Positions 1 to 14,437 of a stretch of DNA of 24,000 nucleotides are shown piece by piece; the first letter of the stretch is position 1, and the number at the start of each line of letters is the position of its first letter. This DNA comes from Endozoicomonas sp. 8E. GTDB taxonomy: Bacteria > Pseudomonadota > Gammaproteobacteria > Pseudomonadales > Endozoicomonadaceae. The stretch lies in the NCBI RefSeq assembly GCF_032883915.1, contig NZ_CP120717.1, positions 1,905,697-1,929,696 of the forward strand, given 5' to 3'. Below the pieces are notes generated by a model. The model made no database searches. It saw only the letters and a list, made by a program, of their open reading frames with translations, and had not been told where the DNA came from. The position numbers and the translations under genes were made by a program.

Positions 1-653
1 TGTATGTAGTCGTACCAGGCACCGTCTGGTGTGGTAATTTCGGTAACAGGCAGGATCTGGTAGTCATCCAGGTGGAGGATACCGGCAGTGATTTCGCGTC
101 CGGTAACAAACTCTTCAACCAATAGTTTTTCATCCATTTGCAGGCCGACTTTCAGCTTGCTCAAAAGGTCTTCATAACCCATGGCAAACTGGACGCCAAT
201 ACCGGAACCCTGACCGGGCGGCTTGATGATGACCTTATGCCCGAGAGATTCGATACAGTCGAGAGTAGCATCTTCATAGTTTTCGCTGCGATAGACGACT
301 CTGTCTCTGGCCATAGTGATGCCGACAGGCTGAAGCAAACGTTTGGTAACCACCTTATCCAGAGAACAGGCGCTTGCCAGGGCTCCGGAACCTACGTAAG
401 GAACGCCCATAATATCCAGAAGACCCTGCAGGCGGCCATCTTCACCATAGGGACCGTGGGCGACCGGGAAAGCAACGTCAACCTGTTGGGCTATGAGTTG
501 TTCCGGAAGCGTTTCGTCGAGCTCAAGGTGGATGGCTCTGCCATAATGTTCTTCCAGACAGGGGGAGATTCGGCTTGCGGAGAGTCTGGATACATCTGCT
601 TCGGGAGACAGGCCGCCGCAGATGACGGCAACCGTTTTGCTTTTGTCAGGCAT
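1..653 (-). CDS. ddl: D-alanine--D-alanine ligase family (ATP-grasp) protein, N-terminal part only; the gene continues past the left edge
   Basis: Not in the ORF track because it runs off the edge. Hand translation of the minus strand from ATG 653-651 gives MPDKSKTVAVICGGLSPEADVSRLSASRISPCLEEHYGRAIHLELDETLPEQLIAQQVDVAFPVAHGPYGEDGRLQGLLDIMGVPYVGSGALASACSL. This carries the Ddl N-terminal GG-S-E-VS and HG-GEDG-QG-L...PYVGSG motifs. Confidence 0.8.
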   Translation of the reverse strand, partial: MPDKSKTVAVICGGLSPEADVSRLSASRISPCLEEHYGRAIHLELDETLPEQLIAQQVDVAFPVAHGPYGEDGRLQGLLDIMGVPYVGSGALASACSLDKVVTKRLLQPVGITMARDRVVYRSENYEDATLDCIESLGHKVIIKPPGQGSGIGVQFAMGYEDLLSKLKVGLQMDEKLLVEEFVTGREITAGILHLDDYQILPVTEITTPDGAWYDYI

Positions 654-736
654 TCGTCTGATGGCTTTTGTTTGGGCTATGATCAGACAAGCCTAGTACA
701 TAAGCCAAATCTGACCAGTCAGGTTAATGAATCCAT

Positions 737-1453
737 TCAGACCCTTCCTCTGTCCAGTTTTACCCTGAGCCATTTAAAAAATTCCGGTGTCGCCTGCTTT
801 AGCCAGAGATGCTGGTATTTCAGGGTCAGCTTTAGCCAGCCTTTATCATGATACTTTCTCGCACTGGTACCCAGCCTGGTGCCACAGGTGTGGAGGAGGA
901 TCCTGTTTTGTCGGGCTTTCCAGACAAATACATGATCTTCACCGTAGAAAGTGTCGGTGGGATAACCCTTGAGGTCGAAAAATTGTGTCCGGCTGAGGCA
1001 AAACCCTTGATCTCCATAGGGGCATCCCAGAATATCGGAGCGGAATCTGGCTCCCCATTCGTTGATGGATAACCAGCAAGTGTCTTTGTCGTAAAACCAG
1101 AGATCAAAGTAGAGCAAGCGTCTGGGATATTGAGCAATGGCATTCAGTAAGCTTTGTACATTCTCTTTGTCCAGTATTGTGTCTGCATGCAGAAACCAGA
1201 GGTAATTCCCTGTAGCTTTCTCTGCGCCTGTATTGAGCTGACAGGCACGTCCCTGTTCTGCAGTACACCAAATCCACTTGAGGTGAAGCAAAGGGTCCGG
1301 AAGCTGATCCAGTTTGGCAGGCCGCTGATTGTCGTCATAGCCAACAAGGATGACCTCGTTACCCTCGGGAAGAAGACTCAGTTGTTCAAGAAGCGTTGGC
1401 CACTGCGGCTCACAAGGGCCCAGTGGCACGATTACAGATAGGCTGGGCATCAT
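737..1453 (-). CDS. Family-2 glycosyltransferase of the rSAM/selenodomain-associated type (TIGR04283-like, accession recalled)
   Basis: 238-aa ORF with LSVIVP at the N-terminus and GRACQLNTGAEKATGNYLWFLHADT, both typical of this GT2 subfamily. Its ATG shares nucleotide 1453 with the stop of the upstream phosphorylase gene (TAATG on the minus strand). Confidence 0.75.
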   Translation of the reverse strand: MMPSLSVIVPLGPCEPQWPTLLEQLSLLPEGNEVILVGYDDNQRPAKLDQLPDPLLHLKWIWCTAEQGRACQLNTGAEKATGNYLWFLHADTILDKENVQSLLNAIAQYPRRLLYFDLWFYDKDTCWLSINEWGARFRSDILGCPYGDQGFCLSRTQFFDLKGYPTDTFYGEDHVFVWKARQNRILLHTCGTRLGTSARKYHDKGWLKLTLKYQHLWLKQATPEFFKWLRVKLDRGRV

Positions 1454-2313
1454 TATCTTTGCAATACTTCCAGCAATGCTTTCTGCTTCTGGCCAAGCGT
1501 GTTCTCAGGAGAGAGTACTGCTGATTTCAGTGCGCTCCTGCACTGGCAATAATTGCTGTCATGAGGTGTTTCTTCCTGCTGTTTCAGATATTGTCCTAAC
1601 AATGCTTTAGCCAGTGTCAGGCTTTTGCCGTATCTGGCAATAATCTGCTCAACGCTGGCGTGGGCTGAAGGGTCCTCCTTCCAGCAATCGTAATCGGTGG
1701 CAATGGCGATTGTTGTATAACAAAGCTGAGCTTCCCGTGCCAGAAACGCTTCAGGCACATTAGTCATGCCGACAACATCGCACTGAGCAGCGTTTTTCAG
1801 GAACAGGCTTTCTGCACGGCTGCCCAGTCTTGGGCCGTCAACACAAGCATAGGTTTTCTCTTTATGCAGTCCTATTTTCGCCAGGTTAGCGGCATTGAGC
1901 AGTTGTTCTGATTGGTGATGACAGCTCGGTATTGCGGTGGAGACATGAGCGACAAGACCGTGACCAAAAAAGCTTTTTTCCCGGTGTCCTTTGACAAAGT
2001 CGAAGTACTGACTGACCAGCGATAATTCGCCCGGCGCAATCTCCTCCTGCAGACTGCCAACCGCAGAAAGGCCTATCACCCGGGTCGCACCCAGACTTTT
2101 TAATGCCCAGATATTGGCCCGATAATTGATTTCATGAGGCAGGAGTTCGTGGCCACTTCCATGTCTGGGCAGGAACAACAGCTTTTGTTGATTAAAAAGA
2201 CCTGTTGTTATTGGGCCTGAGTGAGGGCCATACGGTGTTTCAATGCTCTGCTCATTCAATACTTCAAGTCCATCCAGGCTGTAGATGCCTGTTCCGCCAA
2301 TCACTGCCAGCAT
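1453..2313 (-). CDS. S-methyl-5'-thioadenosine / purine nucleoside phosphorylase family (MTAP-like) enzyme
   Basis: 286-aa ORF with MLAVIGGTGIY, FLPRHGSGH, INYRANIWALKSLG, VVGMTNVPEAFLAREA and ATDYDCW. These are typical PNP/MTAP family motifs. Confidence 0.85.
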   Translation of the reverse strand: MLAVIGGTGIYSLDGLEVLNEQSIETPYGPHSGPITTGLFNQQKLLFLPRHGSGHELLPHEINYRANIWALKSLGATRVIGLSAVGSLQEEIAPGELSLVSQYFDFVKGHREKSFFGHGLVAHVSTAIPSCHHQSEQLLNAANLAKIGLHKEKTYACVDGPRLGSRAESLFLKNAAQCDVVGMTNVPEAFLAREAQLCYTTIAIATDYDCWKEDPSAHASVEQIIARYGKSLTLAKALLGQYLKQQEETPHDSNYCQCRSALKSAVLSPENTLGQKQKALLEVLQR

Positions 2314-2334
2314 TGGGTTTCCTTTTCATTGTGT

Positions 2335-2775
2335 TTAATCAGATATCTGTTGGATCAGGCTGGGAAGCTGATTGACCCACACCCTGATCTCGTCTCTTAC
2401 ACGACGATAGATTGCTAATGATTCTTCTTCTGTATCCACCGATTCAGTCAGTCGGGGAGGGTCATCAAAACACTTGAGTATAATCTGACCCTGCCTGGGT
2501 GTTGGACAGGTTTTATGGGCGTGATCACAAACGGTGATAATAAAGTCAAAATCTTCCTGACCCAGATCATTGAGGGTTTGTGACTGCTGTCGGCTGATAT
2601 CAACGCCAGCTTCCTGCATGACCCTGACTGCAGATGGGTTGAGCCCGTGGGCTTCAATGCCGGCAGAAAATGCTTCATAACCTGAAGGGAGCAGGTTTCT
2701 GGCCCAGCCTTCCGCCATCTGGCTGCGACAGGAGTTGCCAGTGCAGAGGAACAGTATCCGGATTTTAGCCATCAA
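2335..2775 (-). CDS. arsC: Arsenate reductase, LMW-PTP / thioredoxin-coupled type
   Basis: 146-aa ORF with the P-loop LCTGNSCRSQMAEG and a downstream Cys pair VCDHAHKTCP, spaced like Cys82/Cys89 of Gram-positive-type ArsC. Confidence 0.85.
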   Translation of the reverse strand: MMAKIRILFLCTGNSCRSQMAEGWARNLLPSGYEAFSAGIEAHGLNPSAVRVMQEAGVDISRQQSQTLNDLGQEDFDFIITVCDHAHKTCPTPRQGQIILKCFDDPPRLTESVDTEEESLAIYRRVRDEIRVWVNQLPSLIQQISD

Positions 2776-2799
2776 AATTTCCTGTTGTTGTGCAGACGA

Positions 2800-3729
2800 T
2801 CAGAGTTCGCTGCAGGAAGAGCCAAAAGCAAAACAGCTATAGCAACGGTGGTGTTTCATACTGATGGTTTCACTCAGGCTGGTTCGTAAACTCTTGCCAA
2901 GGTTGTACTCGGTATCGTCATCCACCAGTGTGCAGGCGTAAACCTGCATCTGCCCGTTTTGTTTGACCATCATTTTGGAAAACGCGCACATAAATTGACG
3001 ACGACTCTCTTCTGTCTGATAGCGGGTCATACAGTCTGTGCTGACGTGGGGAACATCCGGTAAAGAACCGGGTGGCAGGAAGTCCGGAAAGGCCACCTGT
3101 TTCAAGTTGACGGGCAAACCGTTCAGTTCAAAAAGATCTTTGAAGGCCTGTTCAACCACTGCCGTGTTTTCATCTTTTTCCATATGTCTGGCGACGGAGA
3201 TGTTAAAGCCTTTTTCATGCAGTAGTTTCAGTCCGGAAAGAGCGATGGCAAAGCTGTCTTCACCTCGTCCTGCATCATGTTGTTCAGCGTTTGGATGATC
3301 CAGACTGACTCTCAGGGATATGGGGTAGGGGTTACTGCTCAACCGGGCCAGCTCATCGAGCCTTTTGATCATGGGGGTCGTGCCATTAGTCAGAACCAGG
3401 CAGGGGCGATGCTGTGAGGCATAGTCCAGGATTCGAATAATGTCTTTAATGACAAAAGGCTCTCCTCCCGTAAAAGAGAACTGTTCAACCCCCAGTTCAA
3501 GTGATTCATCAATGTAGGGTTTTACCTCTGTCAAAGTGGGGGCATCCAGCCTCTTGCTGGCCGGACTTGAACCTTCCAGACAAAAGCCGCAGGAAAGATT
3601 GCAGCGGGTTCCGGTATGAAACCAGAGCTCTTTCAGTTGATGAGGTTTGATATAACCTCTGGGGCTGCCATCAGGTGTAAAGTGCCAATCCTGGCTTTTA
3701 GTGTCTGGAGGCGTTCCTGTCAGCAACAT
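2800..3729 (-). CDS. arsS: Radical SAM enzyme with a Cys-rich C-terminus, ArsS-like (arsenosugar biosynthesis radical SAM protein; TIGR04167-like, accession recalled)
   Basis: 309-aa ORF with the CX3CX2C motif CNLSCGFC, FSFTGGEP, and the C-terminal Cys-rich tail HHRCYSCFAFGSSCSEL. Its ATG (3729) overlaps the arsM stop (3720-3722) by 10 nt. Confidence 0.8.
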   Translation of the reverse strand: MLLTGTPPDTKSQDWHFTPDGSPRGYIKPHQLKELWFHTGTRCNLSCGFCLEGSSPASKRLDAPTLTEVKPYIDESLELGVEQFSFTGGEPFVIKDIIRILDYASQHRPCLVLTNGTTPMIKRLDELARLSSNPYPISLRVSLDHPNAEQHDAGRGEDSFAIALSGLKLLHEKGFNISVARHMEKDENTAVVEQAFKDLFELNGLPVNLKQVAFPDFLPPGSLPDVPHVSTDCMTRYQTEESRRQFMCAFSKMMVKQNGQMQVYACTLVDDDTEYNLGKSLRTSLSETISMKHHRCYSCFAFGSSCSEL

Positions 3730-4772
3730 GATCCATCACTTCCTTTGTTTTCATGGGTGGAAGATGAGAAGGGCAGCGAAGTTCCGCAGCCCTCAAAAAT
3801 GCCATAATGGGTGCTGAAGTTACCAATGAACTCGAAGTGTTCACGGAATCTTGTATCGTGCAGCATTCTCCAGGTGTTACCGCAAACCGGGAAAACCTTG
3901 CCTTTGGTAATAGGATGGTGCCCATCCAGGTTGAAGGTGTTGGGATGGTGATCAATTGTGCCTTTATAGATCACAGCCTGACCATAGTCCTCGCAATGAC
4001 TTTCCAGCTCTGGCAGTTTGAACAATCGATAAGTCGCCGAGAAAAACCGGATATCACCGACCTGGGTTTCAATCTTACGGTTATTGATGGTGACAGGTTT
4101 GTCTTCCACCAGTCTGGGGTCAGTGAAACCGGCCTTTTTAGCCAGATTCAAAAAGTCATTCCAATAAAGGGCACCGCTGAGACACTCTCCATAAAGTACC
4201 GGATCATCGACCAGTTCAGCAGGAATGCGGCGATCAGAATAGACGTCAGAGAAGTAAAGTTCGCCGCCTGGTTTCAGCAGGCGCCAAGCTTCTCTCAATA
4301 CTGCTTCCTTGTCCGGAGAAAGGTTGATCACGCAGTTTGAAATGATCATGTCGAAGCTGTTTTCTTTAAGGTTCAGTTGATCCAGTTTTTCAATATAGCC
4401 TTTATGGAATTCAGTGTTGGCTTTTGCGTAGCCGAATTTTTCCCGATGGTATTCGACATGTCGGTTGGCTATGGCAAGCTGTTCGTCTGTCATGTCGACA
4501 CCGACGACATAACCTTCTTCTCCGACCATTTGTGCCAGGGCATAACAGTCACGACCTGATCCAGAGCCAAGGTCGAGTATTCTGGCGCCTTGCAACTGCT
4601 CAGGGCAGACCAGTCCGCAGCCATAGTAATGGCTCAGAACCTCGTCATGAATATTGGCAAGGGCACTTTTCAGGTGGCGTGGCATGGCTGTATCGGTGCA
4701 GCAGGCATTGGTCTGCAGGTCATCGCTGCCCTGCAGAGTCTTGCCATAGTAATTCTGTACTGATTCATGCAT
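3720..4772 (-). CDS. arsM: Arsenite S-adenosylmethionine methyltransferase
   Basis: The ORF-track entry is 3720..4847. I place the start at ATG 4772 (MHESVQNYYGKTLQGSDDLQTNACC), with AAGGA about 10 nt upstream and an 8-nt overlap with the upstream stop. The conserved ArsM cysteines are present (NACC, YYGCG, ISNCVINL, GECLSGA), as are the SAM-binding LDLGSGSGRD and the C-terminal GSCC. The alternative start at 4847 would add 25 aa. Confidence 0.85.
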   Translation of the reverse strand: MHESVQNYYGKTLQGSDDLQTNACCTDTAMPRHLKSALANIHDEVLSHYYGCGLVCPEQLQGARILDLGSGSGRDCYALAQMVGEEGYVVGVDMTDEQLAIANRHVEYHREKFGYAKANTEFHKGYIEKLDQLNLKENSFDMIISNCVINLSPDKEAVLREAWRLLKPGGELYFSDVYSDRRIPAELVDDPVLYGECLSGALYWNDFLNLAKKAGFTDPRLVEDKPVTINNRKIETQVGDIRFFSATYRLFKLPELESHCEDYGQAVIYKGTIDHHPNTFNLDGHHPITKGKVFPVCGNTWRMLHDTRFREHFEFIGNFSTHYGIFEGCGTSLPFSSSTHENKGSDGSCC

Positions 4773-5472
4773 GAGAGGTTTTTCCTTGCTTGAAAATAGA
4801 TTGAATATGTTTTGCCAGTGCCCTTCGGGCAGGTCGATTGTCGCCATTCAGTTCGGGGAGCACTCCGAGCAAATCTTTTAAATGATCAACATCCTGGCCA
4901 GAAGGCGCGTAGCCGACAGATAAGCGGGATTGACGACAAAGACTGGTCAGTGACACTCCCAGAGAGCCTGTGCTCCAGGGCAGCTCTGAAAGGTCAGGCC
5001 AATGAGTTCGGTTGGCCATGATGGTGACGCCGCCATCACTGGCCTTGCTGAATACTGTGTCGTAGGTCTTGAGCCTTTGTGCCGTGTCCGAGAGGTCTTT
5101 GAGGCTGAGTGTCGGACAGTCACTGCCAATATAGATGAGGTTTTCTTTTCCCTGAAGTCTCAGCTCATTGTCGATGTGGTTCAGTCTCTCACCCAGGTTG
5201 CCAGAGCCCTGGGGTACGACCAGGTTGTCCTTGCCCTCCAGAAGCTGACTGGCCCAGTCACAGTCGCTTTCATGAGAGGGAGCAATAACTTTTTGGCCAG
5301 GCCACTCTGATAAATCTTCCAGTGCACAGGCTAGCAGGTGTTGAGCAACAGTGAGCGCCTGTTCTGTTCCCATGTCAGCAGCAAGGCGTTGTTTTCCCTG
5401 GTGTAAGGCGGGCTTTTTGCACACAAGTATCAATGTTGCCTTTTTTATCAGACTCGGTTCGTTGCTTATCAT
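4765..5472 (-). CDS. DUF2064 / CofC-like 'transferase 1, rSAM/selenodomain-associated' protein (TIGR04282-like, accession recalled)
   Basis: 235-aa ORF with LILVCKKPALHQGKQRLA, QGSGNLGERL, IGSDCPTL, ASDGGVTIM, LPWSTGSL and QDVDHLKDL. These match the DUF2064 pattern (KaP-G-vKtRL, QG-GDLGeRm, iGtDcP, DGGYyl, WST, DvD). It is the first gene of the operon. Confidence 0.7.
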   Translation of the reverse strand: MISNEPSLIKKATLILVCKKPALHQGKQRLAADMGTEQALTVAQHLLACALEDLSEWPGQKVIAPSHESDCDWASQLLEGKDNLVVPQGSGNLGERLNHIDNELRLQGKENLIYIGSDCPTLSLKDLSDTAQRLKTYDTVFSKASDGGVTIMANRTHWPDLSELPWSTGSLGVSLTSLCRQSRLSVGYAPSGQDVDHLKDLLGVLPELNGDNRPARRALAKHIQSIFKQGKTSHA

Positions 5473-5770
5473 TATTCTTTGATTTTAATTTCGCTAAGTG
5501 TTCGTAAGAGCCAGACTCCAGCCTGCTACTGCATAACTATACTGCGGAAACAGTTATTTGGATTCAAGGCTGTGATTATTTTTTAAAAGCTCTCTTTGCG
5601 GTTGTCTGCTGGTTAACCTGCCGGGTGTTGTTCTGCTGACAGGGAAAGCTCTGTGATTTGAGTCAGTATAAATCCGGAAAGAGCAATCAAGCATAATACT
5701 GGTGTCAATTCAGGTCGGGCTTTATAATCCTCTCCCAAATTTTTTATTGAATTTCCCCTGGTAACTTTTT

Positions 5771-6862
5771 ATGGGCTTTAAATGTGGCATCGTTGGTCTG
5801 CCCAACGTCGGCAAATCAACACTGTTCAATGCTTTGACCAAGGCAGGGATTGATGCAGAGAACTTCCCTTTCTGTACTATCGAGCCAAATGCGGGTGTTG
5901 TGGCTATGCCCGATCCGCGTCTGAATAAGCTGGCTGAGATCGTTAAGCCTGAACGTGTGTTGCCTACTACCATGGAGTTTGTCGATATTGCCGGTCTGGT
6001 AGAAGGTGCCTCCAGGGGTGAAGGTCTGGGCAACAAATTTCTGGCTAATATTCGTGAGACAGATGCTATTGCCCACGTAGTACGTTGCTTCGAGAATGAT
6101 AATGTGATTCATGTGGCCAATAAAATTGATCCGGCGGCGGATATTGACATTATCAATATCGAGCTGGCCATGGCGGATCTGGAAAGCTGTGAAAAACAGC
6201 TACAGCGAGTCACTCGTGTCGCCAAGAGCGGCGACAAGGATGCCAAAGCCCAGAAAGCCCTGCTGGAAAGAATTGTTCCCCATCTGGAAGAAGGCCTCCC
6301 TGTTCGCTCCATGGCAATGACCGATGAAGAGCAGAAACTGACCAAAACATTCCACCTTCTGACGACAAAACCCACCATGTACATTGCTAATGTTGATGAA
6401 GATGGTTTTGAAGATAACCCCTATCTGGATGTTGTCCGTGGCATTGCCCAGAGCGAGGGCTCTGTTGTGGTAACAGTCTGCAACAAGCTGGAAGCTGAGA
6501 TTGCTGAGCTCGAAGATGAAGAGCGAGATGAATTTCTGGCCGATCTGGGTATGGAAGAGCCGGGTCTGGATCGTGTGATCAGGGGTGGTTATGAACTGCT
6601 TGGACTGCAGACGTATTTCACTGCCGGAGTTAAAGAAGTGCGTGCCTGGACTGTGAAGATCGGCGCGACGGCTCCTCAGGCTGCAGGTGTGATTCACACT
6701 GACTTTGAGCGTGGTTTCATTCGTGCGGAAGTGACGGCTTATGATGAGTTTGTTCAGTACAACGGTGAACAGGGTGCCAAGGAAGCAGGTCGTTTGAGAG
6801 TGGAAGGCAAGGACTACATCGTCAAAGATGGCGATGTTATGCATTTCCGTTTCAACGTCTGA
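5771..6862 (+). CDS. ychF: Redox-regulated ATPase YchF (Obg-like GTPase family)
   Basis: 363-aa ORF with the N-terminus [23 protein letters not shown] (P-loop), [10 protein letters not shown], and a C-terminal TGS-like end ...[15 protein letters not shown]. Confidence 0.95.
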
Positions 6863-7028: not shown

Positions 7029-7328
7029 ATGGATAAGTGATTACTGAAGATAGGTGAGGCAGCTCGTTTGCATGGTACAGACCCAGTAACACTACGAAAA
7101 TCGGAAAGTACAGGTGAGCTGCTTCCTGCCAGAAAGACCAAAGTTGGAACTTGTTACTACGACGTGTCTGAATTGATGGGCTACAGTAACGAAGCTGTGC
7201 CTATGCTTTGCTATTGCAGAGTATCCAGTCACGACCAAAAGCCAGACTTAGACAGGCAGCAAGAGTTACTGGAAGCCTACTGTTCTATAGAAGGTTGGCG
7301 AACTCAGGTTATACGAAAAAATGCTTGA
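7029..7328 (+). pseudogene. tnpA: IS607-type serine recombinase transposase TnpA, disrupted and truncated
   Basis: In the frame of track ORF 7068..7328, reading upstream gives ATG(7029) GAT AAG TGA(7038), then LLKIGEAARLHGTDPVTLRKSESTGELLPARKTKVGTCYYD (MerR-like HTH). This is followed by LCYCRVSSHDQKPDLDRQQELLEAYC (serine recombinase catalytic motif). The frame ends at 7328 after about 100 codons, roughly half the usual length. Confidence 0.7.
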
Positions 7329-7339
7329 GACTTTGCGAG

Positions 7340-8503
7340 ATGTTGTTAGCTCACAAGATTGAACTCAGACCGACAAAACAACAAGCCGATTATCTTGATA
7401 GGGCTTGTGGTTCCCGTCGTCATGCGTTCAATCAACTGTTAGCCCATTTCAATCAAGAAGGCGTTAAATGGTCAAAGAAGGCTGCGAATGAAAAATACCA
7501 AGAACTCAGGCTTGAGTTTCCCTGGTATGCCGAAGTCAGCCAACGTGTCACCAGGAACACAATCGACGATCTTCATGACGCCTTTACTCACTTCTTTCGT
7601 CGGGTGAAGAAAGGAGAAAAAGCAGGTTATCCAAGATTCAAGAAGCGAGGACTACACGACAGTTTTTCTCTCAGAGAAAAAACCAAGTTCGATGTTGATG
7701 GCAGAACACTTCGCATTGAGAAACTGAAAACCCGCATCAAGATGCGCCAGGAGCTGAGATTTACAGGAACACCCTGTCAGGTGACGATCAGTAAGCGAGC
7801 CGGAAAGTATTTCGCTTCTATTTTGGTAGACACTGAGGATTACGAACCAAAAGCACAAAGCAATGAGTCTGTAGGCGTTGATTTTGGCGTCAAAGATTTA
7901 GCTATTTGTTCGAATGGCAAAACCTTTGCTGCTAATCAGAAACTGAAGGGCTCTCTGAAACGCCTTAGCAGTAAACAGAGAGCGTTAAGCCGCAAAACAA
8001 AGGGAAGCAACCGCTACGCGAAAGCCAAGCGAGCGGTTGCCAAACTGCATTACCGGATAAGTAACCAGCGATCAGCCGCAATACATGAGGTAAGTGATTA
8101 TCTGACTTCAAGATTCAAAATAATCACCCTCGAAAATCTGAATGTCAAAGGCATGGTAAAAAACCGCAAACTGGCAAGAGCAATCAGTGACGCAGGTTTC
8201 GGTAAGCTGAGAGAACTTGTTGAATACAAGGCAGAGCTGAGAGGATGCCAGGTTGTGATTGCAGATCGGTTCTTTCCCAGCTCGAAGAAGTGTGCGGTTC
8301 ATACTTGCGACTACGTAAATGACAATCTTACTCTGTCTGATCGTGAGTGGCGGTGTCCAAAATGTAAAACTCTGCATGATAGGGATTACAGTGCGAGTTT
8401 TAACCTTGATAATTATGGTCGAGACACGTTACAGCTCGACCCTAAACCCTACGCAAGAGTGGAGTCAGACACGATTCGTCGTGCATCCATGTCGACGGCG
8501 TAG
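7340..8503 (+). CDS. tnpB: TnpB (OrfB_IS605/IS607-type RNA-guided endonuclease family)
   Basis: Track ORF 7208..8503 trimmed to ATG 7340, which gives MLLAHKIELRPTKQQADYLDRACG, a typical TnpB N-terminus. The RuvC-like residues are all present: D in VGVDFGVKDLA, E in IITLENLNVKGM, a Cys-rich zinc-finger region CAVHTC...CPKC, and D in HDRDYSASFNL. Confidence 0.85.
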   Translation: MLLAHKIELRPTKQQADYLDRACGSRRHAFNQLLAHFNQEGVKWSKKAANEKYQELRLEFPWYAEVSQRVTRNTIDDLHDAFTHFFRRVKKGEKAGYPRFKKRGLHDSFSLREKTKFDVDGRTLRIEKLKTRIKMRQELRFTGTPCQVTISKRAGKYFASILVDTEDYEPKAQSNESVGVDFGVKDLAICSNGKTFAANQKLKGSLKRLSSKQRALSRKTKGSNRYAKAKRAVAKLHYRISNQRSAAIHEVSDYLTSRFKIITLENLNVKGMVKNRKLARAISDAGFGKLRELVEYKAELRGCQVVIADRFFPSSKKCAVHTCDYVNDNLTLSDREWRCPKCKTLHDRDYSASFNLDNYGRDTLQLDPKPYARVESDTIRRASMSTA

Positions 8504-9440: not shown

Positions 9441-10232
9441 TTGAGGCCTGTTTTGGATTTTGTACTTACTCTTGATTGGGGGTTTTTGCTGTTTTTTGTT
9501 GCGATTCTGGCTGGTTTTGTTGACTCCATTGCAGGCGGCGGCGGATTGATTACAGTCCCCGCGCTTCTGGCGGTGGGGCTTTCTCCGGCACAGGCTCTGG
9601 CAACCAATAAATTACAGTCAACAGGCGGCTCTTTCTCTGCCAGTGTTTATTTTATTCGAAGAGGGCTGGTGAATCTCAGGGAAATGCGTTTTGCCATTTT
9701 CATGACCTTTGTTGGCAGTGCCGCAGGCACGATTCTGGTTCAGTTGATTGATGCTTCGGTTTTGAAGCAGATTATTCCCTTCCTGTTATTGGGTATAGCC
9801 GCTTACTTTGTTCTCTCCCCCAGTGTCCGAAATACTGAAGCTTCTACTGCCAGAATGAGCCTGACCGCTTTTGCCTGTTCAGCAGGGTTGGGAGTCGGCT
9901 TTTATGATGGCTTCTTCGGCCCGGGCACGGGCTCTTTCTTTGCCATAGCCTTTGTCAGCCTGCTTGGTTATTCCCTGACAATGGCGACGGCTCATACCAA
10001 AGTTCTGAACTGTACCAGTAATGTGGCCTCCCTGCTGTTCTTTATATTGGGTGGTCAGGTTGTCTGGGCTGTAGGGGGAATCATGCTGATAGGTCAGTTC
10101 ATCGGCGCCAGACTGGGATCGAGAATGGTTGTGAAGCGTGGTCAGCAGATTATTCGTCCCATGATCGTCGTTATTTCACTGGTCATGACCGGCAAACTCA
10201 TGTGGGACGAATACGGACATTTGCTGTTTTGA
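9441..10232 (+). CDS. yfcA: TauE/SafE family membrane transporter (YfcA-like)
   Basis: 263-aa ORF with FVDSIAGGGGLITVPALLAVGLSPAQALATNKLQS, FYDGFFGPGTGSF and GARLGSRMVVKRGQQIIRPM, which closely parallel E. coli YfcA. The start is uncertain. The track uses TTG 9441, but TTG 9453 sits 6 nt after GAGG (9443-9446). Confidence 0.85.
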   Translation: MRPVLDFVLTLDWGFLLFFVAILAGFVDSIAGGGGLITVPALLAVGLSPAQALATNKLQSTGGSFSASVYFIRRGLVNLREMRFAIFMTFVGSAAGTILVQLIDASVLKQIIPFLLLGIAAYFVLSPSVRNTEASTARMSLTAFACSAGLGVGFYDGFFGPGTGSFFAIAFVSLLGYSLTMATAHTKVLNCTSNVASLLFFILGGQVVWAVGGIMLIGQFIGARLGSRMVVKRGQQIIRPMIVVISLVMTGKLMWDEYGHLLF

Positions 10233-10344
10233 CGTTTTTTCTGCGCAAGTGACAGTTTAGGTTTATTATAGGTAGTCCTGCAGGCTCCTCGCCCTGGAGT
10301 CTTATTACTGTTTATTGCAAGAATAACGTTACTCAGATATTTGA

Positions 10345-11811
10345 ATGGACAACAGCTGGCTCAGTGCATTGTTTGGGGGAATCTATCTTGCCCTGATCAT
10401 CGCCTTCGGAATTCACGTTATTATGCAGCGCAGGCCGGTAGGTGTGACTCTGGCCTGGATACTGTTGCTGTTCATTCTGCCGGTAGCCGGTTTCTTCTTT
10501 TACCTGCTGTTTGGCTCAAGGCGCCTTGGGAGAAGAAGGCTCCGACGTCTGGAAAGTTTGTATCCTGACTACGAACAGTGGTCCAGCCACCTTTCGAGAG
10601 TGATCACCCAGCGGCAACTTGAGTGTCCCTCTAATGCCCCTCACACAGGGATCTACAAGCTGGCGGAGCAAACCCTGGGTATCCCAGTGCTGCCTTGTAG
10701 CAAGCTTCAGCTGTTTCATGAAACCGATACAATTCTTCATGGCCTGTTACAGGACATAGAGAAAGCCAGGCGCAGTATTGTACTGGAGTTTTACATCTGT
10801 GAGCCCAAGGGGCGAATCAAGGTTCTGGCTGAGGCTCTGATCAGAGCTTCACGGAGGGGTGTTGACTGTATGGTGATACTTGATGCAGTGGGTAGTCGTC
10901 AGTTTCTTCGAAGTGAGTGGGCAAGACGTTTCCGTCTGGAGGGCATCAGTGTTACCGGGTCAATGCCGGTTGGTCTTTTAAGGATGCTGTTTGAACGCCT
11001 TGATATTCGCAACCATCGCAAAATTCTCGTGATTGATGATGAAATTGCCTGGAGTGGCAGTTTTAACCTGGTCGATCCTGTTCATTTTCGTCAGACGGCT
11101 AATGTCGGACAATGGATCGACGCCATGGTCAGGGTAGAGGGTATACCTGCACACGTTATGGCGGTGATTGCTCATTGGGATAAAGCACTTGAAACGGGTG
11201 AAAAGCATTCGTCGTTTAATGCTACTTACGAGTTTCCACCTTCCTGTCTTGACAGTTACACCGGTGCTGATGTTCACGTACTGCCATCAGGGCCGGGAAT
11301 CAACCGGGAAAGGCTTCATCAGGTTTTGCTTACCGCAATTTACGAAAGTAAGGAGGAGCTGCTGATATCCACGCCTTATTTTGTTCCGGACGAATCATTG
11401 CTGACAGCCCTGAAGTCAGCAGCCATGCGAGGGGTGGACGTTCAGTTACTGGTTCCTCTCACAAATGACTCCAGAATGGTTCACTATGCCAGTCGCTCCT
11501 ATTATGAAGACCTGTTAAACGCAGGGGTGAAAATATTACAGTTCAAGGGAGGGTTGCTGCATACCAAGTGTGTCCTGGTGGACCGATCGACCATTCTTTT
11601 TGGTACCGTAAATCTGGATATGCGCAGCGTCTGGCTTAATTATGAAGTGACCATGATCATCTATGACAGAGCCTTCAGCCAGACTATGGCGACACTTCTG
11701 GATCAGTATATGCAGAGCTCCGTGCGTGTTCGTTTGTCTCTATGGAGCCGAAGGTCTGTGACCAGACGATTTCTGGAGAGTCTTTTTCAGCTGTTGAGTC
11801 CTTTGTTGTGA
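10345..11811 (+). CDS. clsA: Cardiolipin synthase A
   Basis: 488-aa ORF with two N-terminal TM helices and two HKD motifs (HRKILVIDDEIAWSGSFNL and HTKCVLVDRSTILFGTVNLDMRS). Confidence 0.9.
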   Translation: MDNSWLSALFGGIYLALIIAFGIHVIMQRRPVGVTLAWILLLFILPVAGFFFYLLFGSRRLGRRRLRRLESLYPDYEQWSSHLSRVITQRQLECPSNAPHTGIYKLAEQTLGIPVLPCSKLQLFHETDTILHGLLQDIEKARRSIVLEFYICEPKGRIKVLAEALIRASRRGVDCMVILDAVGSRQFLRSEWARRFRLEGISVTGSMPVGLLRMLFERLDIRNHRKILVIDDEIAWSGSFNLVDPVHFRQTANVGQWIDAMVRVEGIPAHVMAVIAHWDKALETGEKHSSFNATYEFPPSCLDSYTGADVHVLPSGPGINRERLHQVLLTAIYESKEELLISTPYFVPDESLLTALKSAAMRGVDVQLLVPLTNDSRMVHYASRSYYEDLLNAGVKILQFKGGLLHTKCVLVDRSTILFGTVNLDMRSVWLNYEVTMIIYDRAFSQTMATLLDQYMQSSVRVRLSLWSRRSVTRRFLESLFQLLSPLL

Positions 11812-11904: not shown

Positions 11905-12453
11905 TTATTTATAGACTTTCAGCGAGTCAACAGTCAGGGAGTAAAGGGTTTCAGTGTACGTTGACTGAGTGGTCTCAACATGCAGGGTTCCAACCAGCCA
12001 ATAAGGGGTGTAGCCCGCTTCCTCGACTTTGATGCCTTTTTCGTTATTCTTGAATTTCACATAAATAGTTTGGTTAGGCGGCGGTGCTGGTACGTGGATG
12101 CAGGCACCCATCGTTGGTACCAGCAACAGCTCCGTCGCTCTCTGGTTTTTATCGAGGTTGAGTGGCACGAGGTATCCGGGTATTTTTACCGTGCGTTTGT
12201 CCAGTCTTGTAACGGGTGTCTGGCCGAGCTTATCCAGATAGTAGATGACATCAGCTTTGCTCATCTCTCCGGCCTGATAACTGTCAACGACTTTTTGATC
12301 CGGTGCAGGCATCAGTTCGTCCCAAGTGATCTCTATGGCTTCTGCTTGGGTTGCTGGCTTTTCCAGCGGCTTGGCTTGAACGGCGACTACTGGCAGCAGA
12401 GCCAGTAGCGTTGTCAGTATCAGGGATTTTCCTGTTTTCATAATGATTTTCAT
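11905..12453 (-). CDS. zrgD: DUF3299 periplasmic protein (ZrgD / PA4066-like)
   Basis: 182-aa ORF with a signal peptide (LLALLPVVAVQA) and the DUF3299 signature VPTMGACIHVPAPPPNQTIYV. The ORF begins 1 nt after the permease stop. Confidence 0.75.
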   Translation of the reverse strand: MKIIMKTGKSLILTTLLALLPVVAVQAKPLEKPATQAEAIEITWDELMPAPDQKVVDSYQAGEMSKADVIYYLDKLGQTPVTRLDKRTVKIPGYLVPLNLDKNQRATELLLVPTMGACIHVPAPPPNQTIYVKFKNNEKGIKVEEAGYTPYWLVGTLHVETTQSTYTETLYSLTVDSLKVYK

Positions 12454-12454
12454 C

Positions 12455-13717
12455 TTAGACTCTTATAGTCAGGCCATCGGCAAGAGAGTTTTTGTAGGCG
12501 CGCCAGGCCGGGATTATGCCCAAAACAATGGCGCAGACAATGATCATTCCGGCCAGTGACCATTCAAAGGTGCCCGGAGCACTGATGGCCAGGTGCAGTC
12601 CCAGGATTTGTTGCACAACGGGCTGAATAGCGAAAAGCAGTCCATACAGTATAAGGAAGCCCAGAAGGGTTCCGGACACCGCATAAACGACAGATTCAGT
12701 GATCATCAGCGTGAAGATATGGATGGGCCTTGCACCGGCAGAGCGGAGAATGGCCATCTCACGGCGCCTTTCATTAAGAGAGGTGAGAATCGTAGTCAGC
12801 ATGCCCATCAGACCTGCCAGGACCACCATGACGGAAACTGCAAGTAATGCCTTTTCTGCGGTGCCTACCAGTTGCCAGAGCTCCTGAAGAGCAACACCGG
12901 GCAGAATGGCGGTCATGGCTTCCTGCCGGTATTCATTGACTTTCCTCTGGTAACGGAAGGCGGCAGTACGGGATTTCAGACCAACAAAATAGGCGGTAAC
13001 ACTGGTGGGCTGAAGATTCATGGCCTGAGCCTCTGCAGCGGACACTGAGAATGCGGCAATGGGTGGTGCACCGCTTACCCAATCGATGTGCAGGGCTTCG
13101 ATCCCCTCAAGAGAGATCAGAATCACTCTGTCCGAAGGCGTACCCGTTGGCTTGAGAATGCCTGAAACCTTAAAAGGCTTATCATCGTGAGACAGCAGAC
13201 TCTTACTTTCTACGCCATGGTTCAGAACAATGCTGTCACCGACTTTATAGCCAAGGCTGGCAGCGACTTCAGATCCAAGTACAGCGTCGTACAAAGCGTT
13301 GAAAGGTTTGCCCTTGGACAGTTGCAGTGATTCGTTGTCGCCGTATCGAAAATGATTGAAGATGTCATGGGAGGTGCCCATGACCCGATAGCCATGGTGG
13401 GAGTCACCCAGGGAAATGGGAACAGACCAGGCAACATCCGGGGCAGACGTCAGGTCCTGATAAGTCTCCCAGGAGATATTGTTGGTGGCATTGCCAATGT
13501 GGAAAACAGAATACAACAGAAGATTCATAGAGCTGCTTCTGGCCCCCACAATCAAATCCGTACCTGACACGGTGTTGGTAAAGCTGTTTTTGGCTTCGAC
13601 CCTGATACGTTCAACCCCCAATAGCAGGGCTACGCTGACAGCAATAGAGAATATAGTCAGCAAGGCGGTTGTTTTTCGGTTTTTAAGGCTCTTCAAAGCC
13701 AGACTTAAAATCGACAT
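12455..13717 (-). CDS. zrgC: ABC transporter permease, FtsX/MacB-like (ZrgC / PA4065-like)
   Basis: 420-aa ORF with N-terminus LKSLKNRKTTALLTIFSIAVSVALLLGV, a large periplasmic loop, and a C-terminal FtsX-type helix bundle (ERRREMAILRSAGARP). Its ATG overlaps the ATPase stop (TGATG at 13715-13719). Confidence 0.8.
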   Translation of the reverse strand: MSILSLALKSLKNRKTTALLTIFSIAVSVALLLGVERIRVEAKNSFTNTVSGTDLIVGARSSSMNLLLYSVFHIGNATNNISWETYQDLTSAPDVAWSVPISLGDSHHGYRVMGTSHDIFNHFRYGDNESLQLSKGKPFNALYDAVLGSEVAASLGYKVGDSIVLNHGVESKSLLSHDDKPFKVSGILKPTGTPSDRVILISLEGIEALHIDWVSGAPPIAAFSVSAAEAQAMNLQPTSVTAYFVGLKSRTAAFRYQRKVNEYRQEAMTAILPGVALQELWQLVGTAEKALLAVSVMVVLAGLMGMLTTILTSLNERRREMAILRSAGARPIHIFTLMITESVVYAVSGTLLGFLILYGLLFAIQPVVQQILGLHLAISAPGTFEWSLAGMIIVCAIVLGIIPAWRAYKNSLADGLTIRV

Positions 13718-14436
13718 CAGTCCACCTCTGTTGCTTTGCTGGCCCGGTTGATTTCATTGAGCGCAATGCTGCGATCAAATAACGATTCAAGGCCACGGTC
13801 GTGGCTGACAAATAGCAGGGTGTTGCCAACTATTTCACATTCTGCGAACAGCAGATTGATGAAGGCTTCCCGGGTATCTGTGTCCAGTGCTGAAGTAGGC
13901 TCGTCGGCAATGATCAGATCAGGCTTGCCAATTAAAGCTCTGGCGGCGGCTACTCGCTGTTGCTGTCCGATACTCAGTTCTGTGACCGGACGATGGAGTA
14001 CTGAGTCGTCCAGTTCCAGATGTTTAAGAAGACGTCTTGCTTCATCCTGCTCACTGCCAGCAATACTGGCGAGATTGCTTTTGCGCTCTATGGCAAAGCC
14101 CAGAGGCAGAGTGACGTTCTCTATTACAGAGAGATAGGGAATCAGATTAAACATCTGGAAGATAAAGCCAATATGATCAGCACGGAAGCGATCGCGCTGC
14201 ACCGGGGAAAAACGACTAATGTCGTTCCCCAGCACTTTGACCTGTCCCCGCTCCGGTGTAATGACGCCGCCGAGCAGTCCCAATAGAGTGGTTTTACCGG
14301 AACCCGACGGGCCGCGGACAAAAACCTTTTCGCCTCTGGATACAGTCAGTTCAGGAATATCCAGAACAGGTATTCCTGCTTTCCAGCTGAACTCAACAGC
14401 TGTGAGCTCAATAACTTGAGAGCGGGAGTCAGTCAT
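13717..14436 (-). CDS. zrgB: ABC transporter ATP-binding protein (ZrgB / PA4064-like)
   Basis: 239-aa ORF with Walker A GPSGSGKTT, signature LSIGQQQRVAAARAL and Walker B LIIADEPTSALD. Confidence 0.85.
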   Translation of the reverse strand: MTDSRSQVIELTAVEFSWKAGIPVLDIPELTVSRGEKVFVRGPSGSGKTTLLGLLGGVITPERGQVKVLGNDISRFSPVQRDRFRADHIGFIFQMFNLIPYLSVIENVTLPLGFAIERKSNLASIAGSEQDEARRLLKHLELDDSVLHRPVTELSIGQQQRVAAARALIGKPDLIIADEPTSALDTDTREAFINLLFAECEIVGNTLLFVSHDRGLESLFDRSIALNEINRASKATEVD

Positions 14437-14437
14437 C

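Follow-up and report, generated by a model that had tools for sequence, protein, structure and literature searches.

A candidate adenine-removing phosphorylase of the MTAP family in a predicted arsenosugar operon of Endozoicomonas sp. 8E

In the classical arsenosugar scheme, which dates from the 1980s, adenine is lost from an arsenic nucleoside. An arsenic locus in the genome of Endozoicomonas sp. 8E, which contains a gene for an MTAP-family phosphorylase, raises the question of whether such an enzyme could perform this step. In the literature searched, steps of arsenosugar synthesis are assigned to ArsM and ArsS alone, and a preprint of May 2026 says of the adenine that it 'can then be removed' without naming an enzyme. 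No papers linking MTAP to arsenosugars were found, which is weak evidence because most subscription journals lay outside the search. No name for this phosphorylase was found in the literature or curated families searched. The window referred to below is the whole 24,000-nt stretch analysed (contig NZ_CP120717.1, positions 1,905,697 to 1,929,696), and coordinates are those of the window.

The phosphorylase gene and its operon

A block of six tightly packed genes lies on the minus strand of the window, listed here from the first cassette gene to the last, together with the spacer in front of the phosphorylase gene.

4765..5472, minus strand: DUF2064 protein (TIGR04282-like, CofC-like), predicted nucleotidyltransferase; first cassette gene
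3720..4772, minus strand: ArsM, As(III) SAM methyltransferase; likely start Met26 (4772), within an ORF that reaches 4847
2800..3729, minus strand: radical SAM enzyme (unnamed family) with the predicted function of an ArsS analogue, dimethylarsenite adenosylation
2335..2775, minus strand: ArsC, thioredoxin-type arsenate reductase with an LMW-PTPase fold (Pfam LMWPc, 63.7 bits)
2314..2334, minus strand: arsC-MTAP spacer, 21 nt, with an AAGGAA ribosome-binding motif, read from the sequence
1453..2313, minus strand: MTAP-family phosphorylase of the 'GPRLG' clade, 286 aa, ATG start; predicted 5'-deoxy-5'-dimethylarsinoyl-adenosine phosphorylase
737..1453, minus strand: GT2 glycosyltransferase, TIGR04283-like; last cassette gene

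The original prediction described a 286-aa ORF of the PNP/MTAP family whose stop shares a nucleotide with the GT2 start and whose own start follows the arsC stop by 21 nt. All three points are borne out. The ORF is real, matches PNP_UDP_1 and is encoded on the minus strand, a detail missing from the original prediction. Its TAA (1455..1453) and the GT2 ATG (1453..1451) form TAATG with one base in common, and the arsC stop (2337..2335) and the phosphorylase ATG (2313..2311) enclose the 21-nt spacer. On the coding strand the spacer reads ACACAATGAAAAGGAAACCCA, and its Shine-Dalgarno-like AAGGAA motif lies 6 nt 5' of the ATG. The remaining junctions are an 8-nt overlap between DUF2064 and ArsM (taking Met26 as the ArsM start), a 10-nt overlap between ArsM and the radical SAM gene, and a 24-nt gap between the latter and ArsC. 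The Met26 start matches the arrangement in E. numazuensis, and ArsM orthologues are called at 348-350 aa. A promoter and terminator scan of window positions 1-6200 revealed no convincing intergenic terminator in the block; terminator-like hairpins were weak and intragenic, and the single promoter-like site was on the wrong strand. The six-gene order is identical in E. numazuensis, Enterovibrio and Motiliproteus.

The DUF2064 protein (Pfam DUF2064, 64.1 bits) has NCBIfam TIGR04282 as its best and specific match, below the cut-off (112.5 bits vs 134). It shows weak homology to the CofC guanylyltransferase (E 2e-4), and its sole PDB relative is 3CGX, a 'putative nucleotide-diphospho-sugar transferase'. 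The GT2 protein (Pfam Glycos_transf_2, 37 bits) likewise has TIGR04283 as its best and specific match below cut-off (156.7 bits vs 182). ArsM scores 182 bits against the NCBIfam arsenite methyltransferase model PRK11873 (cut-off 263), matches several further ArsM models, and its translation contains the ArsM-type Cys motifs NACCTD, SNCVINL and YGECLSGA. ArsC scores 137.2 bits against arsC_pI258_fam (cut-off 174.3) and contains the motifs CTGNSCRS and VCDHAHKTC.

The radical SAM enzyme (Pfam Radical_SAM, 71.8 bits) falls outside the ArsS family, as it reaches only 46.8 bits against TIGR04167 (cut-off 300). Its best NCBIfam match is the Rv1681 family (114.6 vs cut-off 380), and NCBI labels its relatives only 'radical SAM protein'. 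It shares 23% identity with bona fide ArsS across the radical SAM core, and both have the C-terminal motif H-x-C-[YF]-x-C-x5-7-[GS]-S-C. Since this enzyme is not ArsS, its product, too, is one that we infer.

Family membership and active site of the phosphorylase

The phosphorylase belongs to the PNP superfamily, with a match to Pfam PF01048 (PNP_UDP_1) of 110.9 bits over residues 2-232 (E 8e-32, cut-off 25.1). Its ten NCBIfam matches (E <= 0.001) are all MTAP, MTIP or PNP models. The best is PRK08931 (276.6 vs cut-off 437), and the scores against PRK08564 (264.8 vs 382), TIGR01694 (249.7 vs 274.85) and the MTIP model PRK09136 (204.5 vs 223) are also below threshold. The phosphorylase thus falls under every NCBIfam MTAP equivalog cut-off and, judged by these scores, is not a housekeeping MTAP. 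Among solved structures, archaeal and human MTAPs come closest (E 8e-63 to 3e-51), and sequence identity to these already fixes the fold. PGAP names its relatives 'MTAP family purine nucleoside phosphorylase' or 'S-methyl-5'-thioadenosine phosphorylase'.

A phylogeny against housekeeping MTAPs, which had been proposed as a check, placed the phosphorylase in a separate clade supported by 200/200 neighbour-joining bootstraps, the bipartition being clean only after one degenerate Micavibrio sequence (L053) was dropped. The clade is patchily distributed over Alpha-, Beta- and Gammaproteobacteria, Myxococcales, Pseudobdellovibrionaceae and Neomarinimicrobiota. Its members are recognised by the motif GPRLG, which is found in 53/53 of them and in none of 29 housekeeping-type relatives; all 29 of the latter, human MTAP among them, have GPRFS. 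In human MTAP numbering the clade signature is F177L/S178G/I194V/F113Y, and the canonical purine-pocket pair Phe177-Ser178 is accordingly absent from the window phosphorylase. Among the best 150 family representatives at 50% identity, 12 have the GPRLG signature and 111 the canonical F-S pair.

The catalytic residues are otherwise conserved. The positions of the phosphate-binding residues of the human enzyme (T18, R60, H61, T93, A94, T197) are occupied by T, R, H, S, A and T in the window phosphorylase and throughout the clade. The adenine-specifying Asp220 and Asp222 and the ribose-contacting Met196 are kept, with conserved DYD and GMT motifs. With these phosphate- and adenine-binding positions intact, the enzyme would be expected to phosphorolyse a 6-aminopurine nucleoside. 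The clade-specific changes F177L, S178G and I194V lie in the purine/ribose pocket, at positions that we take to correspond to Phe200, Glu201 and Val217 of human PNP. The 5'-substituent pocket of human MTAP is lined by H65, P69, H137, V233, V236, L237 and L279; these positions look ordinary in the clade. The alignment of clade and housekeeping MTAPs revealed no obvious adaptation of this pocket to an arsinoyl group, and no support for the presumed roles of F177 and S178 was found in the literature.

Genomic context of the GPRLG clade

The neighbourhoods of clade members were compared with those of housekeeping-type relatives, scoring a radical SAM, TIGR04283 GT2 or TIGR04282/DUF2064 gene within 9 kb as linkage; the single scan of genome contigs kept its best 80 loci. 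The orthologue-context check came out in favour of the original prediction, with a cassette gene at 43/54 clade loci and at none of the 29 housekeeping-type loci (Fisher p 1.2e-13). The constant partners of the clade MTAP are the radical SAM, GT2 and DUF2064 genes; ArsM is adjacent at 12/54 loci and ArsC at 6/54. At locus L054 the GT2 and DUF2064 genes are fused. Eleven of the 54 clade members have no nearby cassette gene, and three Marinimicrobia loci share a conserved context unrelated to the cassette.

The radical SAM partners fall into three families, with 9 ArsS-type, 15 window-type and 12 third-type enzymes. Eight of the nine ArsS-type enzymes were checked against TIGR04167 and scored 425-466 bits (cut-off 300), placing bona fide ArsS at eight clade loci. 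In Cupriavidus sp. KK10, for example, ArsS (465.7 bits), TIGR04283 (277.7 bits) and TIGR04282 (201.5 bits) are followed by a GPRLG MTAP; the genes on this chromid (PLSDB) were annotated within the present analysis. The GT2 subtype of the window also adjoins bona fide ArsS at loci L020 and L030. These associations point to two or more other radical SAM families as predicted stand-ins for ArsS.

Sampling that was independent of MTAP gave a similar picture for the window-type arrangement. At loci seeded with the radical SAM gene, a clade MTAP lies directly downstream in 4/5 cases, all with GPRLG; the fifth, in Agaribacter flavus, has no MTAP within 5 kb. Metagenome loci seeded with the canonical GT2, which represent soil-type ArsS cassettes, have an adjacent clade MTAP in 1/80 cases (1/26 on contigs of at least 8 kb). 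The phosphorylase is not universal in arsenosugar cassettes and, since an adjacent copy is mostly missing from the soil-type ones, is lineage-specific.

Proposed route, alternatives and known systems

[quoted passage not shown] In the proposed route, arsenate would be reduced by ArsC, ArsM would produce dimethylarsenite, and the ArsS-analogue radical SAM enzyme would adenosylate it. Phosphorolytic cleavage of the N-glycosidic bond by the phosphorylase would then give adenine and 5-deoxy-5-dimethylarsinoyl-alpha-D-ribose-1-phosphate. This sugar-1-phosphate would be converted into an NDP-sugar, probably by the CofC-like DUF2064 protein, and the inverting GT2 would move the arsenoribose onto an acceptor to give a beta-riboside. 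The beta-riboside is the known configuration of arsenosugars. DDMAA is a known product of ArsS, and a passage in PMC5147791, citing Appleby et al., describes MTAP as accepting varied 5' substituents, 5'-deoxy nucleosides included. The original prediction of a dedicated adenine-removing phosphorylase is supported by the separate clade, the orthologue context, the radical-SAM-seeded loci and the catalytic residues. The part given to it in an arsenosugar route is derived from gene context; the substrate identity, the radical SAM reaction, the nucleotidyl transfer and the acceptor are likewise what we infer.

The same catalytic features could serve by-product salvage, in which the enzyme clears MTA, or 5'-deoxyadenosine left when the radical SAM enzyme cleaves SAM abortively, relieving product inhibition and recycling adenine with no role on the arsenic nucleoside. 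A full MTAP catalytic set with an unremarkable hydrophobic 5' pocket would suit this, as would the use of 5'-deoxy nucleosides by MTAPs noted in that passage of PMC5147791, the 11/54 clade members away from cassette genes, and the canonical-GT2-seeded cassettes that work without an adjacent copy. However, ArsM yields SAH and an ArsS-type adenosylation uses up the adenosyl radical, so the cassette would generate neither MTA nor stoichiometric 5'-deoxyadenosine. The three radical SAM families to which the clade is specifically linked are unrelated and have nothing in common but the arsenosugar context. Nor would generic salvage lead one to expect a separate clade whose pocket change is invariant (53/53), and the CofC-like/GT2 pair needs exactly a sugar-1-phosphate. 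Salvage is regarded as unlikely.

It is quite improbable that the gene is a housekeeping MTAP captured beside the cassette, that is, an ordinary methionine-salvage enzyme whose position reflects shared SAM metabolism. The MTAP-type PGAP names of its relatives fit this, but every MTAP equivalog cut-off is missed, the patchy clade travels with the cassette, cassette neighbours are absent from all 29 housekeeping-type relatives, and a scan of window ORFs yielded no gene of methionine salvage. An arsenolytic role, with arsenate replacing phosphate to give an unstable ribose-1-arsenate that thiols reduce, would make the enzyme an auxiliary in arsenate activation or reduction. Mammalian PNP supports such arsenate reduction in vitro, according to work cited in PMC12608789, and the phosphorylase gene directly follows arsC in the window. 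Yet ArsC adjoins only 6/54 clade loci while the radical SAM, GT2 and DUF2064 genes are constant, the window already has a dedicated ArsC, and the relevant passage of PMC12608789 describes in vivo operation of the PNP route as not established; this role appears highly improbable.

On the sequence evidence, the clade phosphorylase is at present the strongest candidate for adenine removal in arsenosugar synthesis. Through this clade, which can be recognised by GPRLG, adenine removal gains a specific candidate gene, and in combination with the CofC-like and GT2 genes the later steps become testable at the level of the sugar-1-phosphate, the NDP-sugar and the beta-riboside. Families standing in for ArsS would broaden the range of predicted arsenosugar makers, coral and sponge symbionts included. 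More tentatively, and with rather less than even confidence, the six-gene block may by itself lead all the way from arsenate to a glycosidic arsenosugar, through a so far unrecognised ArsS-like radical SAM family, a dedicated DDMAA phosphorylase, a CofC-like nucleotidyltransferase that forms an NDP-arsenoribose and an inverting GT2, in Gammaproteobacteria of corals and sponges such as Endozoicomonas. If so, arsenosugars in marine invertebrates would come from animal-associated heterotrophic bacteria as well as from algae and cyanobacteria.

Among known systems, the phosphorylase shares its fold and family with MtnP/MTAP (TIGR01694; PDB 1V4N, 2A8Y, 1WTA, 1CB0). It is 40-45% identical to archaeal MTAPs (E 8e-63), with which it also shares a C-terminal CxC motif, and its phosphate-binding and adenine-specifying residues are identical to those of MTAP. 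It differs in missing the curated cut-offs, in the invariant F177L/S178G/I194V/F113Y signature, in having arsenosugar rather than methionine-salvage genes as the genomic partners of its clade, and in a predicted substrate with dimethylarsinoyl in place of methylthio.

The canonical cassette consists of ArsM, ArsS (TIGR04167), TIGR04282 and TIGR04283. The window operon has ArsM and TIGR04282-like and TIGR04283-like genes, and in other genomes the same MTAP clade and GT2 subtype adjoin bona fide ArsS. Unlike in the canonical cassette, the window radical SAM enzyme is from another family (23% identical to the ArsS core) and all components fall under the curated cut-offs; in the metagenome sample, canonical cassettes usually have no adjacent MTAP.

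Hopanoid synthesis offers a parallel in pathway logic only. There, the radical SAM adenosylase HpnH acts before the PNP homologue HpnG, and an HpnG knockout accumulates adenosylhopane (PMC13459092). HpnG belongs to another branch of the superfamily, and an HpnG-type assignment of the window phosphorylase was rejected, as no hopanoid-associated model is among its ten NCBIfam matches. HpnG acts on a lipid substrate, and phosphoribohopane has so far escaped observation (PMC13459092). By analogy, both systems would follow the same two-step logic, with radical SAM adenosylation followed by adenine removal by a PNP-superfamily enzyme of the same cluster.

The phosphorylase and its operon

The left end of the window carries six tightly packed genes, all called as ORFs on the minus strand and assigned with Pfam and NCBIfam, with a truncated ddl gene next to the block.

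4765-5472, minus strand: DUF2064 protein
3720-4847, minus strand: ArsM, likely start Met26 at 4772
2800-3729, minus strand: radical SAM enzyme
2335-2775, minus strand: thioredoxin-type ArsC
1453-2313, minus strand: MTAP-like ORF of 286 aa
737-1453, minus strand: GT2
3-653: ddl, truncated

The original prediction placed an MTAP-family ORF in this operon, its stop overlapping the GT2 start and its start 21 nt after arsC. Re-reading of the junctions confirmed this arrangement and adds the strand, which had not been given. Stop and start overlap at 1453 as TAATG, and the arsC-MTAP spacer (2314-2334) contains an AAGGAA motif. The remaining junctions are -8, -10 and +24 nt, and no convincing internal terminator was found in the block by a consensus scan. 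The first ATG of ArsM (4847) would give an 83-nt overlap with DUF2064, and Met26 (4772) gives 8 nt; Met26 is probably the true start because orthologues are 348-350 aa long.

An IS605-family TnpB (7208-8503, plus strand; OrfB_IS605 and a Cas12f-like TNB domain) lies near the cassette, just past ychF, and is absent at the corresponding position in E. numazuensis. A 478-aa ORF (17826-19262, plus strand) has no Pfam match at E ≤ 1e-5. The ZrgA/ABC ATPase/FtsX permease/DUF3299 block (11905-15145, minus strand) looks like a zinc-uptake system; it and the following genes look like ordinary housekeeping functions.

10345-11811: cardiolipin synthase-like PLD
20071-22068: upp and uracil permease
22718-23977: AbgT transporter

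The window protein belongs to the MTAP family (PNP_UDP_1, 110.9 bits), and solved archaeal and human MTAPs match it with E values of 8e-63 to 3e-51. It misses every curated NCBIfam MTAP/MTIP equivalog cut-off (e.g., TIGR01694, 249.7 versus 274.85). The human MTAP sequence used for alignment was checked against PDB 1CB0 (full-length match, 647 bits, E 2e-194). In human numbering, the phosphate site is conserved (T18, R60, H61, T93 replaced by S, A94, T197), as are M196, which contacts ribose, and D220 and D222, which specify adenine. Phosphorolysis of a 6-aminopurine nucleoside is therefore the chemistry expected from these residues.

One genome per species was scanned, and the best 80 loci showed 64-41% identity to the window protein. 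All 53 loci scoring at least 281 bits carry GPRLG (human F177L, S178G), compared with none of 29 housekeeping-type loci; this site reads GPRFS in human, archaeal and Geobacter-type MTAPs. The clade also shares F113Y and I194V. We take F177, S178 and I194 to be the counterparts of the human PNP purine-pocket residues Phe200, Glu201 and Val217. The residues forming the 5'-substituent pocket are in no way unusual, so the signature marks the clade and does not alone explain arsenic specificity. Phylogenetic analysis against housekeeping MTAPs placed the window protein in this separate clade (200/200 neighbor-joining bipartition, with the degenerate Micavibrio sequence L053 left out), whose members come from the Gamma-, Alpha- and Betaproteobacteria, Myxococcales, Pseudobdellovibrionaceae and Neomarinimicrobiota. 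In a set of 1.8 billion proteins clustered at 50% identity, only 12 of the 150 best-matching representatives have L-G, many of these being fragments, and 111 have F-S. No model in NCBIfam release 20 claims the GPRLG clade or the window-type radical SAM enzyme, and PGAP names for relatives of both are generic.

The L053 protein (9899-10843, plus strand) clusters with the clade, yet it reads F-G in place of L-G, lacks both aspartates that bind adenine (D220A, D222E) and has no cassette neighbors; it may be decayed or repurposed.

Gene neighborhoods and radical SAM partners

In every locus, ORFs were called and compared with the window proteins and a canonical cassette, with a 9 kb limit on distance. 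At least one cassette gene was found at 43 of the 54 clade loci, and none of the tabulated neighbors at the 29 housekeeping-type loci (Fisher p 1.2e-13), so the context of the orthologues agrees with the predicted arsenic link.

Neighbors of the clade MTAP gene (loci of 54)
Any radical SAM: 36
GT2: 37
DUF2064: 35
FAD disulfide oxidoreductase: 15
ArsM: 12
ArsC: 6

The key locus linking the clade to ArsS is on the Cupriavidus sp. KK10 chromid (L084), with the order ArsM, AhpD-like, ArsS, FAD oxidoreductase, VTT/DedA protein, TIGR04283, TIGR04282, GPRLG-type MTAP and a further radical SAM. Scores there exceed the cut-offs for TIGR04167 (ArsS; 465.7 versus 300 bits), TIGR04283 (277.7 versus 182) and TIGR04282 (201.5 versus 134). 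Bona fide ArsS (425-466 bits) adjoins the clade MTAP at seven further loci, and in L020 and L030 true ArsS occurs together with the window-type GT2 and a window-like ArsM.

The MerA/Lpd-like FAD-dependent disulfide oxidoreductase and VTT/DedA membrane domain recur with the cassette (L084, 5415-7660; L004, 11559-13772, minus strand; L001, 9546-11684, minus strand), as separate proteins in Cupriavidus and as a fusion in Neptuniibacter, and also occur in many canonical metagenome cassettes. Three GPRLG members (L019, L027 and L036, from Neomarinimicrobiota and an unclassified MAG) have no cassette gene within 9 kb; their conserved context is instead a Crp-type regulator, a PAP2 phosphatase and a LiaF-like protein.

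The window radical SAM enzyme (2800-3729, minus strand) is not ArsS (TIGR04167, 46.8 bits versus the cut-off of 300; 23% identity), and its homologues are labelled by NCBI just 'radical SAM protein'. Besides ArsS, two other radical SAM families accompany the clade, both below the ArsS cut-off: the window type, itself an unnamed family, and a third, related type that scores 131-165 bits to the window protein and occupies the corresponding position in other genomes. All three have a C-terminal motif in common: HHRCYSCFAFGSSCSEL in the window enzyme, DHCYGCTAGQGSSCGG in Cupriavidus ArsS and HxxCxKFCVLGGGSCS in the third type, with H-x-C-[YF]-x-C-x5-7-[GS]-S-C describing the first two. We read the three families as functional analogues.

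Two samples were not seeded on the MTAP. Five homologues of the window radical SAM were looked up, and four (Thalassotalea montiporae, Aliikangiella coralliicola, Parashewanella spongiae and one MAG) show the order GT2, (DUF547), DUF2064, ArsM, radical SAM, (ArsC), MTAP, with GPRLG in 4/4; Agaribacter flavus has no MTAP within 5 kb. Within Endozoicomonas, ychF and ddl flank the six-gene cassette, the arrangement also seen in the window. A divergent Endozoicomonas-like MAG (L086, 5718-6941, plus strand) has an Abhydrolase_2 esterase and an FKBP isomerase in the ArsC slot and keeps the MTAP-GT2 pair. The GT2-seeded sample comprised 80 metagenome loci with canonical TIGR04283, mostly with ArsS, FAD oxidoreductase and DUF2064; an adjacent MTAP was found in only one (L087, GPRLG), or 1/26 on contigs of at least 8 kb. 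The marine window-type cassette nearly always includes the clade phosphorylase, ArsS cassettes have it occasionally, and most soil-type cassettes lack it in their close surroundings; in these, a housekeeping or unlinked enzyme presumably removes adenine.

The radical SAM-seeded loci (L167-L171) also conserve a ~780-aa FAD/4Fe-4S oxidoreductase, DUF547, an MptA_B/GT87-type membrane glycosyltransferase and a fatty-acid hydroxylase. These genes hint that the arsenosugar product is linked to a lipid or bound to the envelope. Bacteria with the window-type cassette often bear names that point to life with corals or sponges (Endozoicomonas, Motiliproteus coralliicola, T. montiporae, A. coralliicola, P. 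spongiae). This pattern may be sampling bias; the carriers can be compared with arsenosugar occurrence in marine invertebrates.

Proposed role in arsenosugar synthesis

Gene context indicates that the window protein is probably a phosphorylase of DDMAA (5'-deoxy-5'-dimethylarsinoyl-adenosine), as part of a predicted MTAP subfamily specialised for the arsenic nucleoside. Comparative genomics supports the original proposal of an arsenosugar-pathway phosphorylase, with two corrections: the partner reads as an ArsS analogue, not ArsS, and the clade is lineage-specific, not universal in arsenosugar cassettes. Phosphorolysis of DDMAA would invert C1' to an alpha-1-phosphate, the predicted CofC-like nucleotidyltransferase (DUF2064) would form an NDP-alpha-sugar, and GT2 would yield the beta-riboside. 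GT2 enzymes are inverting and arsenosugars are beta-ribosides; the stereochemistry is consistent across all three proposed steps. DUF2064 is homologous to 2-phospho-L-lactate guanylyltransferase, and the one relative in the PDB is described as a 'putative nucleotide-diphospho-sugar transferase'. Fusion of GT2 and DUF2064 in one 453-aa protein of a Myxococcales MAG (L054, 10854-12215, plus strand) suggests that they act in consecutive steps.

Salvage of by-products by the enzyme would account for the ordinary 5' pocket and for clade members without cassette linkage, but we consider it unlikely, as it leaves the specific, cross-family linkage and the invariant signature unexplained. Moreover, the cassette makes no MTA and an adenosylating radical SAM enzyme no stoichiometric 5'-deoxyadenosine; therefore, the nucleoside needing processing would be DDMAA. 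Capture of an ordinary housekeeping MTAP beside the cassette is less probable still, being contradicted by the sub-threshold equivalog scores and a patchy distribution that follows the cassette. Arsenolysis, by which the enzyme would activate arsenate, has an in vitro precedent for PNP (cited in PMC12608789), yet it is hard to square with the few clade loci (6 of 54) that have ArsC alongside and is very improbable.

DDMAA phosphorolysis is also plausible because MTAP tolerates varied 5' substituents (PMC5147791). It is established that ArsS adenosylates dimethylarsenite to DDMAA; a May 2026 preprint says only that adenine 'can then be removed'. No literature assigning a role to the GPRLG clade or to arsenosugar adenine removal was found in our searches, whose coverage mostly excluded subscription journals. 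If correct, our assignment would supply the enzyme for one step in the classical arsenosugar scheme, still unassigned as far as the literature searched shows. Hopanoid synthesis offers a direct precedent, in which the radical SAM enzyme HpnH adenosylates and the PNP-family enzyme HpnG then removes adenine (PMC13459092).
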